Source: a plasmid
Strand: one strand, 5' to 3'
DNA: 6,174 bases
Sequence record: NZ_CP093950.1
Each line of letters opens with the position of its first letter. Position 1 is the first letter of the stretch. A program made the position numbers and the translations under genes. Under the pieces are notes generated by a model. It made no database searches. It saw nothing but the letters and a program-made list of their open reading frames with translations, and was not told where the DNA came from. Positions 423 to 5,969 of this stretch are shown here, in pieces.

Positions 423-1367
423 ATGGCTAATGAGATTGTAAAATACCACCATGAATTAAATACAATTCCTTTAAGAAAATTTACACCGGTTGAAATGAAT
501 TTGTTTTTTTCCATCGTGTCTAGAATGCGTGAAAAAGGGGATAAGACAGTTCGTTTTACGTTTGACCAACTAAAAGATTTAAGTAACTACAAAGCAACTG
601 CAAATGTACGATTTGTAGAAGATTTAAAAGCAACTTATGAAAAAATCTTATCTTTACGCTTTGGTCGTAGAAGTGAGTCTGGGCTTTCTTACGATATGTT
701 TGTAATGTTTACAGAATTTAAAATCAACGGGGACGTAGAAAATCCTTACGTAGATATACGAATTTACGAAAAAGCACTGCCTTTGTTAAATAATTTAGAC
801 GAGTGGGTACGCTATTCTTTACAACAATTCAACGAGCTACAAAGTGGCTATGCAAAGACTATGTTTCGTCTGTTAAAGCAATACAGAACCAAAGGTTTCG
901 CATATTTCTCCAAAGAAGACTTTCTTGAATTATTAGATATTCCTAAAAGTTATAAGCAACCTGATATAGATAAACGAGTTATAAAACCTATACGTCAAGA
1001 ACTAACTGCAATCTTCAAAGGACTAACAATCAAAAAGAAATACGGAAAAGGACGGGGAAAACCTGTTATTGGCTATCAATTTACGTTCAAACCTGAGATC
1101 AAAAAAGCAGACGACTTTAACAAACATGCACCAACCAAAGAAGACCAAAATAAAGCATTGGCTTTAGCTGATAAACAAAAAGAATACGAAGAACCCGCTA
1201 CAACAATTAACGAAAAAATCAAACAGAAGAAACGAGAACTTGAACTCCTCCAACAAATCAAACAACTAGAAAAAGAGAAAAAAGCTCTTGAAAAACAAAC
1301 AGAGTCCGCACTTTCGGAAAAAGAGAAAAAAAGTTTATTATCTGATTTAGATAATTTATTCCAGTAG
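423..1367 (+). CDS. repA: Rep_3-family theta-replication initiator protein (RepA/RepB type)
   Basis: 314-aa ORF directly downstream of the iterons. The N-terminus MANEIVKYHHELNTIPLRKFTPVEMNLFFSIVSRMREKGD matches the conserved N-terminal pattern of Rep_3 initiators from Gram-positive theta plasmids, as I recall it. The C-terminus is a K/E-rich predicted coiled coil. An RBS and consensus promoter lie upstream. Confidence 0.9.
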   Translation: MANEIVKYHHELNTIPLRKFTPVEMNLFFSIVSRMREKGDKTVRFTFDQLKDLSNYKATANVRFVEDLKATYEKILSLRFGRRSESGLSYDMFVMFTEFKINGDVENPYVDIRIYEKALPLLNNLDEWVRYSLQQFNELQSGYAKTMFRLLKQYRTKGFAYFSKEDFLELLDIPKSYKQPDIDKRVIKPIRQELTAIFKGLTIKKKYGKGRGKPVIGYQFTFKPEIKKADDFNKHAPTKEDQNKALALADKQKEYEEPATTINEKIKQKKRELELLQQIKQLEKEKKALEKQTESALSEKEKKSLLSDLDNLFQ

Positions 1368-1935: not shown

Positions 1936-2106
1936 ATGACAAAAAAACACTTGCTATTCGGTTCTATCCTACTAGGAATATTAAGCTTTAGCCCAATGTT
2001 ATTATCAGTGGCCAACAAAGGAAATAAAAAAGGGGAACTAAAACTCAATCCTAATTACTACAACAGTCAAAATGAGGAAGTATTTGTAGAAAAACTTGAT
2101 AAATAA
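1936..2106 (+). CDS. Small (56-aa) protein with an N-terminal signal-peptide-like or TM segment and a charged C-terminus; function unknown
   Basis: ATG at 1936 follows an RBS aaggaa (1924-1929) with a 6-nt spacer, just after the repB stop at 1919-1921. The sequence is MTKKHLLFGSILLGILSFSPMLLSVA followed by NKGNKKGELKLNPNYYNSQNEEVFVEKLDK. A perfect stem-loop terminator follows. The tracked start at 1891 overlaps repB and lacks an RBS, so 1936 is preferred. Confidence 0.4.
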   Translation: MTKKHLLFGSILLGILSFSPMLLSVANKGNKKGELKLNPNYYNSQNEEVFVEKLDK

Positions 2107-2107
2107 G

Positions 2108-2134
2108 AAAAGACTGCTCGTACGAGCAGTCTTT
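2108..2134. terminator. Rho-independent, likely bidirectional terminator ending the rep operon
   Basis: aaagactgctcg / ta / cgagcagtcttt is a perfect 12-bp inverted repeat with an A-run on one side and a T-run on the other. It lies immediately after the stop codon at 2104-2106. Confidence 0.6.
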
Positions 2135-2473
2135 CTGAAAGAGATTATCCTATTATTAACCTTAGAAAAGAATAATAAATGAATATGAGATATGTAAAAA
2201 GCATAACAAACACAAACAAAAATAACAAGTATTTAAAAAATGACCGATCAATATTCACAAAGAATTAGAAAGAAACAACCGCAGAAAACCAAGCCTTAAA
2301 AAGAGCTTTTAACCTAGACCAATAAAAATTCACAAAATCAGCGCCTGGATCCCTTGGTACAGGCGTTACTTGGTAGTATGTACATTATGTCTACTAGCTG
2401 TTTAAATAACTGATCTTATAATTTTATTTAAACGATTATGAATTCAAAACTACTTTTTATGACGTTAATCATT

Positions 2474-2503
2474 GTTATATAATAAAATGTTATATAATAA
2501 AAT
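2474..2503 (+). promoter_or_regulatory. Tandem 15-bp direct repeat (gttatataataaaat x2) carrying TATAAT-like boxes; probable promoter/regulatory region of the bacteriocin operon
   Basis: Exact copies at 2474-2488 and 2489-2503, about 60 bp upstream of the bacteriocin start. Each contains tataat. The region is extremely AT-rich. Exact -35/-10 assignment is uncertain. Confidence 0.4.
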
Positions 2504-2560
2504 TACTAAGATTATTTAATATAACAAGCAATTTTAAAAAAACGAAAAGGAAAAACAATC

Positions 2561-2785
2561 ATGAAAAAGAAAGTATTAAAACATTGTGTTATTCTAGGAA
2601 TATTAGGAACTTGTCTAGCTGGCATCGGTACAGGAATAAAAGTTGATGCAGCTACTTACTATGGAAATGGTCTTTATTGTAACAAAGAAAAATGTTGGGT
2701 AGATTGGAATCAAGCTAAAGGAGAAATTGGAAAAATTATTGTTAATGGTTGGGTTAATCATGGTCCATGGGCACCTAGAAGGTAG
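2561..2785 (+). CDS. Class IIa (pediocin-like) bacteriocin prepeptide with a sec-type signal peptide; bacteriocin 31 / bacteriocin 43 / T8 / hiracin JM79-like
   Basis: 74-aa ORF with RBS aaagga 9 nt upstream. The N-terminal 30 aa [30 protein letters not shown] form a typical sec signal (K-rich n-region, hydrophobic core, VDA cleavage site). The predicted mature 44 aa, [44 protein letters not shown], carry the YGNG(V/L) pediocin box and two Cys spaced CxxxxC. From memory this mature sequence matches the bacteriocin 43/T8/hiracin JM79 group. Confidence 0.93.
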
Positions 2786-2804
2786 TGGTAGGGAGGTTAT
2801 TATA

Positions 2805-3092
2805 ATGGATTTTACTAAAGAAGAAAAACTTTTAAATGCAATTAGTAAAGTATACAATGAAGCAACTATAGATGACTATCCTGACTTAAAAGAAAAGCTC
2901 TTTCTTTATTCTAAAGAAATCAGTGAGGGAAAAAGTGTTGGTGAAGTTAGTATGAAATTAAGTAGTTTTCTTGGAAGATATATTTTAAAACATAAATTTG
3001 GATTACCTAAATCTTTAATAGAATTACAAGAAATTGTTAGTAAGGAATCTCAAGTATATAGAGGATGGGCTTCTATTGGTATTTGGAGTTAA
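2805..3092 (+). CDS. Class IIa bacteriocin immunity protein (pediocin/enterocin-A immunity family, ~95 aa, helical)
   Basis: ATG at 2805 is preceded by gggagg (2791-2796). The 95-aa product MDFTKEEKLLNAISKVYNEA...GWASIGIWS sits immediately after the bacteriocin gene, which is the canonical structural-immunity gene pair. Its size and helical K/E-rich character fit the four-helix-bundle immunity family. The tracked start at 2727 would overlap the bacteriocin gene and has no RBS. Confidence 0.85.
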   Translation: MDFTKEEKLLNAISKVYNEATIDDYPDLKEKLFLYSKEISEGKSVGEVSMKLSSFLGRYILKHKFGLPKSLIELQEIVSKESQVYRGWASIGIWS

Positions 3093-3114
3093 TTCTTTGG
3101 AATAAAATGAAAAT

Positions 3115-3148
3115 GGGACTGAAGAATCAATTCTGATTCATCAGTCCC
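3115..3148. terminator. Stem-loop terminator after the immunity gene (possibly bidirectional)
   Basis: gggactgaagaatca / attc / tgattcatcagtccc has 15-bp arms with one mismatch. The T-tract on the + strand is weak, while a T-rich run follows on the - strand. It lies 23 nt after the immunity stop. Confidence 0.55.
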
Positions 3149-3263
3149 ATAAATTATAGAGCCGAAAAATTATCATATTTATAGATTTATTAATAGTAAA
3201 TGGCATAAGAATCTTTGAACAACGAAAAAAATGTAGCTCTACCTAATTATTGATTTGCAACAA

Positions 3264-3540
3264 TTTCACCGAAGGTGAAACAAGCGAAACTTTACAAAAA
3301 GTGGCTAGCATTTGCTAGCCTTTTTTGTATTGTGGAGCGTGGTTTTTGAGGGGGATTCAAGGGGGAGCTTGCGCCCCTTTGACAAGCGGTTATTTGCACC
3401 AAATACGTAGGTATTTGGCTAGCAAATATAGAGCTTGCCAAGCCCTTTAGTAAGCTTTAGTGAGCTTTACTTATTGTACCTTTTTAGGTACAATGGTATT
3501 GCGAACGATACGTCCGTAGGACGTACTGAAAGGGTGGGAC
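3264..3540 (+). other. Candidate oriT / mob promoter region with multiple inverted repeats, repeated gagcttgc motifs, a MOBQ-like gcttgcgcccctttg candidate nic motif and a palindrome in the mobC leader
   Basis: Inverted repeats read directly: tttcacc-gaa-ggtgaaa (3264-3280); ggctagc-attt-gctagcc followed by a T6 run (3303-3326); ccaaatac-gtag-gtatttgg (3399-3418); a third ggctagcaaa arm (3417-3426); attgtacct-tttt-aggtacaat (3473-3494); tacgtcc-gta-ggacgta (3519-3535). Imperfect direct repeats gagcttgcgcccctttgacaagc (3364-3386) and gagcttgccaagccctttagtaagc (3431-3455), plus agctttag/gagctttac at 3452-3468. The region lies directly upstream of mobC, as oriT does in pC221-type mob cassettes. 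Confidence 0.55.
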
Positions 3541-3542
3541 TT

Positions 3543-3923
3543 ATGAGCGAACAAAATCAATATTTGGCTAGCAATCATTCTAAAAAATATACCTATCGAT
3601 CCGAGCCAAAACAAATCAGTTTTCGAGTGAGCGAATCCGAATTTGCAAAGCTGAAGCAGTCAGCTGAAGCTTTGCAAATGAGTGTGCCGGCTTTCGTGAA
3701 AGCCAAGGCACAAAACGCGCGTCTGGTGACACCGAAAGTGGCGCCAGACATTGCTCAGGCAATCGCGCGCGATTTAGCCAAAGCTGGCGGGAATATCAAT
3801 CAAATTGCCAAGTGGTGCAACACACACCAACACGACGTTGATCCTGGCGACGCCCAACGCTTATCCGAAAACCTAAAAATCATGCAAAAGGAGCTACAAA
3901 AGATATGGCAACAGTTAAAGTAA
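3543..3923 (+). CDS. mobC: Mobilization accessory protein MobC (relaxosome DNA-binding component)
   Basis: 126-aa product beginning MSEQNQYLAS. The motifs ISFRVSESEFAKLKQSAEALQMSVPAFVKAK and LAKAGGNINQIAKW match the ribbon-helix-helix-like and G-N-N-Q-IA signatures of the MobC family as I recall them. It sits just downstream of the IR-rich candidate oriT and its stop overlaps the mobA start. The tracked start at 3435 would read through oriT with no RBS. Confidence 0.85.
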   Translation: MSEQNQYLASNHSKKYTYRSEPKQISFRVSESEFAKLKQSAEALQMSVPAFVKAKAQNARLVTPKVAPDIAQAIARDLAKAGGNINQIAKWCNTHQHDVDPGDAQRLSENLKIMQKELQKIWQQLK

Positions 3924-4819
3924 GCCGAACCACTTCTTGTAGCCGAGCGATCAATTACGCCGAACCACGAGCAACCGTCAAAACAGGGATAAACTGTGAC
4001 ATTGATTATGCCAAAAGCGAAATGAAACAAATTCGCATGCTGTATGGAAAAGACGATCGTGTACAAGCACACTTATTGATCCAGTCTTTTCGACCAGGAG
4101 AAATTACCGCTGAAAAAGCCAATCAACTAGGGGCAGAGTATGCGAAAAAAATAGCCCCTGACCACCAAATCGCGATTTACACACATACAGACAAAGACCA
4201 TATTCATAACCACATTGTCATTAACTCCGTCAATCTGGAAACTGGGAACAAATTTCAAGCCCATGGTCAAGCATTTTTAAACAAATGTTATGACCTAAAT
4301 GACGAGATTTGTCTTGAACATGACTTAACAATCACTGAACGAGGGAAGAAACCCGAAAAACGAACCATGTCTGAAATCAAATTAAAAGAAAAAAATGAAC
4401 CTGTTTGGAAAGACGAAATTCGGTTTGCGATTGATCAAACAATGAAAAACAAAAAAACTCGAACGTATAACCAATTTTGTGATTCTCTTAAAACATTCGG
4501 CATTCATTGCTTGAATCGTGGGAAAAATTTTACTTACGAATTGATCCACAAAAAGAAAAAAGTACGATCCAACAAACTAGGAAAGGATTACGAAAAGGAG
4601 ACGATTTTACATGAGCTGGACAGACGAGAACGAGCCTACAATCAACAACGAACCAACGAGCTACGAAGAGCTCGAGCTAGCATTCGCGAAACTGCAAAAG
4701 AAGTACGAAGAGAACAACGAACTCTTACGACTGAACAACCGGAAATTAGACCGACTCGAAGAAACCATGACCAACACGTTGAAAGAGGAGCAGACTACCA
4801 ACAAGAATTATCGTTCTAA
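3905..4819 (+). CDS. mobA: MobA relaxase (Relaxase/Mobilisation nuclease domain, MOBQ-like; pC221/pRI1-type)
   Basis: 304 aa. The histidine triad HTDKDHIHNHIVIN is the 3-His metal-binding motif of MobA/VirD2-type relaxases. The N-terminal region, starting MATVKVSRTTSCSRAINYAEPRATVKTGINCDIDYA, should contain the catalytic Tyr. RBS aaaggag lies upstream. The gene overlaps the mobC 3' end by 19 nt, consistent with an operon. Confidence 0.9.
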   Translation: MATVKVSRTTSCSRAINYAEPRATVKTGINCDIDYAKSEMKQIRMLYGKDDRVQAHLLIQSFRPGEITAEKANQLGAEYAKKIAPDHQIAIYTHTDKDHIHNHIVINSVNLETGNKFQAHGQAFLNKCYDLNDEICLEHDLTITERGKKPEKRTMSEIKLKEKNEPVWKDEIRFAIDQTMKNKKTRTYNQFCDSLKTFGIHCLNRGKNFTYELIHKKKKVRSNKLGKDYEKETILHELDRRERAYNQQRTNELRRARASIRETAKEVRREQRTLTTEQPEIRPTRRNHDQHVERGADYQQELSF

Positions 4820-5057
4820 AACGTTACAAGACATAGAAAATGAAATAAAGAAACAACGTGCTTTTCTTGCACCTTATACCAAAGAAAGAATACAAACTAC
4901 AATTGATTCACAAGTCAAAAAATTCCACCATGCGCTATTAAACCAGCGAAATAAAGAACAGAAAAAAGTAATTATGCAGCGATCAATGGATATTCTTGCC
5001 CCCTTATGTTGCTTAATCATGACACTGTTAGCCTTTTGGCTGGTATGGGGAGAATAA
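4611..5057 (+). CDS. mobB: MobB-like mobilization protein, overlapping the mobA 3' end in a different frame, with a C-terminal hydrophobic anchor
   Basis: 148-aa ORF with a strong RBS aaggag (4595-4600) and a 10-nt spacer. It starts 209 nt before the mobA stop in another frame, the same overlapping mobA/mobB arrangement known from pC221-family cassettes. It has a coiled-coil-like central region and a C-terminal TM tail LAPLCCLIMTLLAFWLVW. Confidence 0.65.
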   Translation: MSWTDENEPTINNEPTSYEELELAFAKLQKKYEENNELLRLNNRKLDRLEETMTNTLKEEQTTNKNYRSKTLQDIENEIKKQRAFLAPYTKERIQTTIDSQVKKFHHALLNQRNKEQKKVIMQRSMDILAPLCCLIMTLLAFWLVWGE

Positions 5058-5063
5058 ATAGAA

Positions 5064-5753
5064 ATGGCATTCTATTTACCCTATCTACTCATTTTTGCCA
5101 GTATTTTAGGAATTATTTGGCTTAGCTATAAGGCTTATCAAACAAGATATTCATTAAAAGGCTCTAAAATTCGATTTAAGAGGTTTTTATTGCCAGGGGT
5201 TATATTTACATTATCAATCGTTTTAAGTGGTTTATTCGGCGTTTTAGAGGGAAATAAACGTATTTCAAGAAGTATTTTATTAGGGGATATCACTCAAAAG
5301 TATGAAGCAGCATGTGATAAAAAGAAAAAGGAGCAAGTGTTAACACAAAAAATGGAAGAGTTTACCACTTGTTATGAGGAAATGAACGATATTTTTGTGA
5401 ATCAAGAAAAACGTTTGACGGATAAAAACATGGAAAAACTCACTCGTCTTTATCAAAACTTGCCAGAAAAACAGCAAAAAGAGGTTCAAGACAACTATGA
5501 GCGAACCAAAAAAGACGTGCAATATTTTAAAGATACGCAGACAGAAGAAGCTTGTTATAATTTATTCAGTGATACAATCCCTTTTTCAACTAGTGAACAG
5601 GAACGAAAAGAACGGCAACAATCAGTTACCTACGAACGTTATAAAGCACTGCTTCAGCAAGCAACGAACATACAAAATCCAACGAAAAAAGAAACGGCAT
5701 TAAATTATCTAAAAAGTGTCAAGGAATGGTTAGATCAGCAACAGCAAAATTGA
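5064..5753 (+). CDS. Uncharacterised 229-aa protein with two N-terminal TM helices and a ~165-aa charged helical domain containing 3 Cys; co-transcribed with the mob operon
   Basis: ATG 6 nt after the mobB stop, with RBS ggggag (5047-5052). TM1 is about residues 4-22 (FYLPYLLIFASILGIIWLS) and TM2 about 42-62 (LLPGVIFTLSIVLSGLFGVL). The remainder is K/E/Q-rich. I recognise no motif in it. A strong terminator lies 60 nt downstream. Confidence 0.7.
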   Translation: MAFYLPYLLIFASILGIIWLSYKAYQTRYSLKGSKIRFKRFLLPGVIFTLSIVLSGLFGVLEGNKRISRSILLGDITQKYEAACDKKKKEQVLTQKMEEFTTCYEEMNDIFVNQEKRLTDKNMEKLTRLYQNLPEKQQKEVQDNYERTKKDVQYFKDTQTEEACYNLFSDTIPFSTSEQERKERQQSVTYERYKALLQQATNIQNPTKKETALNYLKSVKEWLDQQQQN

Positions 5754-5792: not shown

Positions 5793-5969
5793 TCAAACAT
5801 TAGATACACGAAAGCCCCAGAGAGGTCGGATTCTCTGGGGCTTTTTTTCAGGTTGATGTCGCCTTTATTGATTTTACTTCTTGTTTCGGTTATTCAACCA
5901 ATAACTGAATAAAGAGACACAAACTTCTATAAGAAGGGGGCAAATGAACAATTCAAACATTAGATACAC
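5793..5969. repeat. Pair of identical 17-bp direct repeats (tcaaacattagatacac) bracketing the terminator and ~140 bp of non-coding DNA
   Basis: Exact copies at 5793-5809 and 5953-5969, read directly. The feature span covers both copies plus the intervening segment. Confidence 0.8.
5813..5848 (+). terminator. Strong rho-independent terminator ending the mob operon
   Basis: agccccagagag / gtcggatt / ctctggggc followed by ttttttt (5842-5848). The stem is GC-rich, 12 bp with one bulge. Confidence 0.85.

Follow-up and report, generated by a model that had tools for sequence, protein, structure and literature searches.

The bacteriocin and immunity gene pair of plasmid NZ_CP093950.1 and its match to bacteriocin T8/hiracin JM79

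Sec-dependent representatives form a minority among the class IIa (pediocin-like) bacteriocins, and reviews count T8/hiracin JM79, enterocin P, bacteriocin 31, enterocin SE-K4 and listeriocin 743A among them. Hiracin JM79, the original locus of which is that of E. hirae DCH5, was stated to be identical to bacteriocin T8 in a 2012 review, and a 2025 Nature Microbiology paper treats T8, hiracin JM79 and bacteriocin 43 as the same bacteriocin, carried on a 6,173-bp rep11a plasmid with mobABC. The published description of plasmid pDT1 lists the genes bacA, bacB, mobC, mobA, repA and repB. Here, we analysed a stretch of plasmid DNA of 6,174 nucleotides (nt) from sequence record NZ_CP093950.1, in the following called the window, in which positions 2561-3092 hold a bacteriocin gene and an immunity gene. 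The window fits both published descriptions, and from our point of view it is almost certainly a complete pDT1-like, mobilizable and theta-replicating Enterococcus faecium plasmid of ~6.17 kb, the two-gene cargo of which is the known bacteriocin T8 operon. The bacteriocin pair as such is hence already known, with the peptide, the immunity gene, the Sec-type export and the plasmid described since 2006. The two genes and their parts, with protein lengths in amino acids (aa), are arranged as follows:

2547-2551 (+): Shine-Dalgarno sequence AAGGA of the bacteriocin gene, read from the sequence
2561-2785 (+): bacA / hirJM79 / T8 structural gene with an ATG start, encoding a prepeptide of 74 aa
2561-2650 (+): part of this gene encoding the signal peptide of 30 aa
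2651-2782 (+): part of this gene encoding the mature peptide of 44 aa
2783-2785 (+): stop codon of the bacteriocin gene
2790-2796 (+): Shine-Dalgarno sequence AGGGAGG of the immunity gene, 8 nt before the ATG at 2805
2805-3092 (+): bacB / hiriJM79 immunity gene with an ATG start, encoding 95 aa

Translated from positions 2651-2782, the mature peptide is identical in all 44 of its 44 residues to the HirJM79 sequence printed in PMC4363639, and it is only this identity that rests on a printed published sequence. An exact-sequence look-up placed the complete 74-aa and 95-aa sequences each on 1000 or more public contigs. Among the source names given there are the UniRef labels 'Bacteriocin hiracin-JM79' (HJM79_ENTHR) for the first and 'Hiracin-JM79 immunity factor' (HJMI_ENTHR) for the second. 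In the 2025 Nature Microbiology study, T8 and its immunity gene were cloned with primers that have exact matches in the window, namely at 2360-2379 on the plus strand (counting, for the forward primer, the 20 nt with which its annealing part begins) and at 3128-3150 on the minus strand. The 791-bp interval 2360-3150 is 100% identical to NZ_LR135390.1. Since both the primers and this interval match exactly, the functional experiments of that paper were performed on this DNA. A first-pass annotation, made from the sequence alone, had suggested a match to the bacteriocin 31/43/T8/hiracin group and had regarded the pair as probably described, and this suggestion is correct and can now be specified as 100% identity to T8/hiracin JM79 and 88% to a bacteriocin-31-type peptide. 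The 74-aa open reading frame (ORF) that it quoted is exact to the letter, and its coordinates and lengths (74 aa and 95 aa) are right. Among the sec-dependent examples that it named, hiracin JM79, bacteriocin 43 and T8 are one peptide and not separate cases.

The carrier leads to the same identification. The window represents a complete plasmid, as it can be aligned end to end (100% coverage, 99.7% identity) with circular 6173-bp plasmids of E. faecium such as NZ_CP066658.1 and NZ_CP066672.1, which are typed in PLSDB as mobilizable, MOBP and rep_cluster_1197, and relative to these records it is rotated by 422 bp. A mobilizable rep11a plasmid of ~6.1-6.2 kb of the pDT1 type with rep, mobC and mobA, which is what characterizes a T8-type carrier, is indeed what we found, and the UniRef representatives of the backbone ORFs (A0JBR8, A0JBR9 and A0JBS2) belong to one accession series. 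The window thus shares with the T8/hiracin JM79/bacteriocin 43 system on pDT1-like plasmids the mature peptide, the plasmid size as well as the content and order of genes, and it differs from that system in nothing of substance, being 1 bp longer and deviating at ~18 backbone positions.

Several points nevertheless limit the support for this reading. The identity of the prepeptide and of the immunity protein to the type sequences rests on database labels, the identity level of the UniRef clusters not being shown. For the leader this is so because no paper printing the 30-aa string turned up in a full-text literature search. Further, ~18 positions and one indel differ between the window and its best plasmid match (blastn), although all of these differences lie outside the bacteriocin and immunity genes, judging by the exact protein matches. 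In one study, T8-positive strains were still partly susceptible to T8 producers, and immunity may be incomplete against strong producers or at a high dose. The phosphotransferase system for mannose (man-PTS) as target and the presumed mode of immunity are extrapolated by analogy from other class IIa systems. Lastly, a direct Sec-depletion experiment for hiracin JM79/T8 was not found in the literature examined, and we hence infer Sec export from the type of the leader and from secretion by heterologous hosts without a dedicated transporter, rather than from Sec depletion. Overall, nothing in our evidence contradicts the T8 identification.

Judged by its sequence, the product of 2561-2785 belongs to the class IIa (pediocin-like) bacteriocins, and an immunity gene lies downstream of its gene. 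The prepeptide scores 54.5 bits on the Pfam model PF01721 (Bacteriocin_II; curated cut-off 24.5), far beyond chance, and its matches among solved chains comprise curvacin A/sakacin A, sakacin P, enterocin HF, carnobacteriocin B2, pediocin PA-1 and leucocin A, whereas the NCBIfam models gave no match for the bacteriocin and none for the immunity protein. The pediocin box YGNG[VL]xCxxxxCxV is present in the mature peptide, which has its two Cys at positions 10 and 15, and the computed values (44 aa, 5093.7 Da in the reduced form, pI 9.15 and a net charge of +3) describe a cationic peptide of <10 kDa. A Pfam scan of the ORFs revealed no modification genes on the plasmid. In RefSeq, an essentially identical plasmid with the same gene order is annotated with a class II bacteriocin and a bacteriocin immunity protein.

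The immunity gene begins nineteen bases past the stop codon of the bacteriocin gene. The ORF listing also holds a longer form with a TTG start (121 aa, 2727-3092), which would overlap the bacteriocin gene; RefSeq uses the 288-nt ATG form (2383-2670 of the plasmid L001, corresponding to window positions 2805-3092) and annotates it as bacteriocin immunity protein. With 31.5 bits on PF08951 (EntA_Immun; cut-off 22.1) over residues 6-75, the product is likewise assigned far beyond chance, and at the sequence level it matches SPy2152 (2FU2) with an E-value of 1.6e-10. A single-sequence AlphaFold model (pLDDT 84.4, pTM 0.75) places helices at residues 5-17/20-24, 26-40, 45-62 and 69-81 and leaves a disordered tail at 90-95. 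Foldseek searches with this model returned at the top 2FU2 (TM 0.72/0.86), followed by ImB2 (1TDP), which confers its name on the immunity protein of carnobacteriocin B2, and by PedB (2IP6), and further down 7XNO_B, the chain of the immunity protein in the ternary complex of sakacin A, and EntA-im (2BL8); the E-values are weak after the first match, as expected of a small bundle. As such, the immunity protein is predicted to be an antiparallel four-helix bundle of the EntA_Immun family with a flexible C-terminal tail and a cytoplasmic location.

With respect to function, results are available from the literature on the identical sequences. In the 2025 Nature Microbiology study, the cloned fragment with T8 and its immunity gene endowed E. 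faecium with killing activity in vitro. The experiments comprised a spot-killing assay, liquid competition and competition in the mouse gut, where production of T8 was advantageous. In the pairwise spot assay, a strain with the empty vector showed no growth on a lawn of the clone carrying T8 plus immunity. Activity against Enterococcus and Listeria has been reported for the identical peptide, with targeting of the man-PTS being assumed. Among clinical isolates with conserved bacA/bacB, all of those tested (124 of 124) were able both to kill a sensitive strain and to withstand bac43.

The question arises whether the two genes are also functional in this particular plasmid copy, for which the signals around them are relevant. 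An insertion sequence (IS) end is included among these:

2473-2502: exact 15-bp tandem repeat (TGTTATATAATAAAA, two copies), each copy with a TATAAT
2472-2492 and 2507-2527: 21-nt inverted repeat that overlaps the tandem repeat
3103-3164 (+): right inverted repeat of ISEfa11 (ISL3 family), an orphan IS end, the 62 bp of which share 98.4% identity with the terminus of this IS in L004 and L005
3113-3150: hairpin with 17-bp arms, 20 bp past the immunity stop codon and inside the ISEfa11 end

Both repeats were found by a repeat search and sit 35-90 bp upstream of the bacteriocin gene's ATG. From its sequence, the region 2472-2527 may be a promoter or operator. A scan of 2100-3560 with the sigma-70 consensus gave 8 sites compared with 6.7 expected by chance, and as this is not above chance, we did not assign a promoter. 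A Pfam scan found no genes for a histidine kinase, a response regulator or an induction factor on the plasmid, which contains no regulator gene. Downstream of the pair, the homology to ISEfa11 extends up to the terminus of the IS (...TATAGAGCC) and no further, and a transposase is absent from the window, which is why we regard 3103-3164 as an orphan IS end; the ~400 Enterococcus plasmids that match this 48-bp piece do so because they carry ISEfa11. Because it has no T-tract, the hairpin at 3113-3150 was passed over by the terminator scan, yet this ISEfa11-derived structure probably acts as the 3' hairpin of the operon.

One could speculate from these observations that the genes are silent or decayed in this copy of the plasmid, which would then be a non-producing variant. 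It is known from the literature that bacA or bacB is disrupted by an IS in some pDT1 variants, and the remnant of an IS end just downstream of the immunity gene as well as the promoter that cannot be assigned by a consensus scan would be in line with such a scenario. However, the two ORFs are intact and do not differ from functional versions, the fragment 2360-3150 is 100% identical to other plasmids with both primers of the functional study matching exactly, and every one of the 124 tested isolates with conserved bacA/bacB was both a producer and immune. We therefore consider a silent copy very unlikely.

A further aspect is the route by which the peptide leaves the cell. The leader of 30 aa consists of the n-region MKKKVLKH with a net charge of +4, an h-region of 18 residues with a mean Kyte-Doolittle value of 2.06 and the c-region KVDA, in which position -3 is a Val and position -1 an Ala and which is followed by ATYY. 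A Gly-Gly does not occur anywhere in the leader. A lipoprotein signal was rejected, because LAGI is not followed by a Cys at +1 and a lipobox cysteine is hence lacking. By its sequence, the leader is a tripartite Sec-type signal peptide with n-, h- and c-regions and not a double-glycine leader. ABC, C39-peptidase or HlyD-type domains were found in none of the ORFs of the window (Pfam, NCBIfam), the longest of which in any frame has 314 aa (Rep), and the nine main ORFs contain, outside the cargo, only Rep_3, HTH/DUF536, NikA/MobC and relaxase domains in the same searches. Since the window is a complete replicon without a transporter ORF, the plasmid cannot supply a dedicated transporter. The first-pass annotation had proposed just such a constellation, namely a class IIa bacteriocin with its immunity partner, a sec leader in place of a double-glycine leader, and neither an ABC transporter nor an accessory gene in the window. 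The scores of PF01721 and PF08951 above their curated cut-offs, the charged n-region, hydrophobic core and V-D-A motif of a leader devoid of Gly-Gly, and the maximum ORF length of 314 aa with no transporter domain found bear this out.

It is, in principle, conceivable that the peptide is exported not by Sec but by a chromosomally encoded double-glycine ABC transporter acting in trans, such as that of enterocin A. According to the literature, the enterocin A locus is present in ~97% of E. faecium isolates, so that a transporter would usually be available, and the literature examined offers no direct Sec-depletion experiment that would speak to the matter. On the other hand, the leader has no Gly-Gly, ends in V-D-A and shows the classical n/h/c architecture, and Sec-type leaders are found in all close relatives. 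Active HirJM79 has moreover been secreted through its native leader by heterologous lactic acid bacteria, i.e. Lactococcus lactis and Lactobacillus sakei, as well as by E. faecium and E. faecalis. Export in trans thus appears very improbable, and export through Sec remains our preferred reading.

Taken together with what is known from related systems, a sequence of events can be proposed. The leader suggests that the prepeptide would be exported by the general Sec translocon of the host and cut by signal peptidase I after V-D-A, upon which the cationic mature peptide would form a disulfide between Cys10 and Cys15. By analogy, the mature peptide would then bind to the IIC/IID components of the man-PTS of sensitive enterococci and Listeria and wedge the transporter open as a pore, while the cytoplasmic immunity protein may dock from the inside on the bacteriocin-bound man-PTS and thereby plug the pore. 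Structural knowledge of this last step comes from sakacin A/SaiA and not from T8.

In a search of 5.8 billion proteins, the nearest distinct relatives were bacteriocin-31-type peptides with 86-88% identity in the mature region, all of which have Sec-type leaders. One relative (P0042), which we regard as bacteriocin-31-type or -like, shares with the mature peptide 38 of 43 residues (88%), and at an identity of only 88% bacteriocin 31 proper was rejected as the identity of the window's peptide. The bacteriocin 31 group, to which bacteriocin 31, RC714 and enterocin SE-K4 of E. faecalis belong, falls into the same class IIa subgroup with the consensus YGNGL(V)xCxKxxCxVxW and shares the Sec-type leader, the GPWAPR tail and the two-gene layout of bacteriocin and immunity gene without a transporter, whereas it differs by E13Q, Q21K, K23S, G24R/K and N36Q, by the missing second C-terminal Arg and by its signal peptides. 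Enterocin P of E. faecium is also a Sec-dependent class IIa bacteriocin that has its immunity gene downstream and no dedicated transporter, but with ~51% identity in the mature region, a YGNGV box and another C-terminal half it is clearly more distant. The operons of pediocin PA-1 and sakacin A belong to the same PF01721 family and have in common the immunity fold as well as the man-PTS as presumed receptor. Their peptides, however, carry a GG leader of 18-24 aa that is cut by an operon-encoded ABC transporter with a C39 peptidase (plus an accessory protein), and neither the GG motif nor such a transporter is present in the window.

A side observation concerns a natural chimera among the relatives (P0036), in which the T8 signal peptide and N-terminal half are joined to an unrelated C-terminal half (NWGQSWSEGLKRWGDNLFGSFSGGR), and the cluster of which comprises 110 member sequences. 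In a study of clinical isolates, a cluster termed 'bac43 partial' was present in 40.7% of the hospital isolates, and the chimera may correspond to this cluster or to BacAS9.

The distance of these relatives also bears on the proposal that the window encodes a new Sec-dependent class IIa bacteriocin that merely resembles the bacteriocin 31/43 group, as a lack of any close relationship to that group would have indicated. A novel variant was conceivable at the outset; with a mature peptide identical in 44 of 44 positions to the published HirJM79, exact proteins on at least 1000 contigs under hiracin-JM79 labels and a 791-bp module 100% identical to NZ_LR135390.1, we rejected this proposal and regard its likelihood as negligible.

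The relevance of the T8 operon lies therefore less in novelty than in its epidemiological context. According to the literature, the pair helps its host to compete in the gut and spreads together with lineages of vancomycin-resistant enterococci (VRE) in hospitals, and recent work links the T8/bac43 plasmid to ST80, ST117 and ST1478, which are replacing older hospital VRE lineages. The plasmid in a sample consequently flags a competitive and probably clinical E. faecium background, and its presence implies resistance to probiotic strategies that are based on hiracin JM79. Outside the features already listed, the plasmid is organized as follows:

268-377: 22-bp iterons in ~4.5 copies upstream of rep (repeat search)
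423-1367 (+): replication initiator of the Rep_3 family, rep11a type (PF01051, PF21205, RefSeq annotation)
1388-1921: HTH/DUF536 protein (Pfam)
1936-2106: conserved ORF of 56 aa with a hydrophobic, signal-like N-terminus (MTKKHLLFGSILLGILSFSPMLLSVA...)
2411-3256: cargo slot of the backbone, the only segment not common to siblings with other two-gene cargos
3543-3923 (+): mobC, with NikA/MobC domains
3905-4819 (+): mobA relaxase (Pfam, RefSeq)
4611-5057: ORF of 148 aa in another frame, overlapping the 3' end of the relaxase gene, UniRef label 'Mobilization protein'
5064-5753: ORF of 229 aa with an N-terminal hydrophobic segment, part of the conserved backbone
5793-5809 and 5953-5969: exact 17-nt direct repeat that overlaps the start codon of the toxin
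5811-5844: bidirectional terminator hairpin with 13-bp arms
5874-5960 (-): ORF of a 28-aa type I toxin of the Fst family (MFELFICPLLIEVCVSLFSYWLNNRNKK), the exact sequence of which is annotated as Fst toxin on ~990 contigs

The slot at 2411-3256 could be delimited by comparison with two sibling plasmids (L002 and L003), to which the window shows backbone homology at 423-2410 and from 3257/3258 to 6174 (blastn and junction alignments). In the first sibling, the slot (1989-2931) is occupied by genes for a 177-aa protein with a Sec signal and a 67-aa protein, neither of which has a Pfam match; in the second (1989-3689), it contains a staphopain-like C47 peptidase with a proregion and a 147-aa protein labelled as lipoprotein. 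The earlier view of the bacteriocin pair as the payload of the plasmid is thereby strengthened, as siblings with the same backbone hold other two-gene cargos in exactly this slot. Because the siblings fill it with unrelated two-gene modules that each start with a secreted protein, and because the T8 module ends in an ISEfa11 terminus, one might further imagine that the backbone is a cassette carrier of secreted effector/protector pairs exchanged by IS- or homology-mediated recombination, or that the alternative cargos are additional bacteriocin/immunity-like systems. We regard this as a tentative and rather doubtful idea.

With regard to the backbone itself, the region 184-404 upstream of rep is the replication origin region and has features typical of a Rep_3 theta origin. 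An inverted partial copy of the iteron is located at 389-404 and three CT-rich repeats with a spacing of 12 bp at 184-226. The exact 56-aa protein occurs on ~990 contigs, where it is labelled 'hypothetical' throughout, and a perfect palindrome with 13-bp arms (2109-2134) lies directly 3' of its ORF. The 148-aa ORF at 4611-5057 is missing from some RefSeq annotations and is part of the conserved backbone. No family match was obtained for the 229-aa ORF at 5064-5753.

The bacteriocin pair is not the only accessory function of the plasmid, since an Fst-type toxin module is also present. Its 28-aa ORF reaches 22.1 bits with the Pfam model Fst_toxin, which is under the cut-off. Rfam returned nothing above the gathering thresholds, and the only suggestive match was to SpF66_sRNA, which reached 28.5 bits (threshold 42) where the Fst-like toxin is located. 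RefSeq annotates the Fst toxin in one sibling plasmid and not in another. From the sequence, the layout of 5793-5969 would be the one expected of a par-like module of toxin and antisense RNA.

Lastly, public entries for fragments of the plasmid's proteins bear the names of Klebsiella pneumoniae, Acinetobacter baumannii, Staphylococcus aureus and Streptococcus pyogenes, and further deposits exist for E. coli, Pseudomonas and Stenotrophomonas. These entries from outside Enterococcus most likely reflect cross-contamination of samples or mislabelled public assemblies rather than the true host range.

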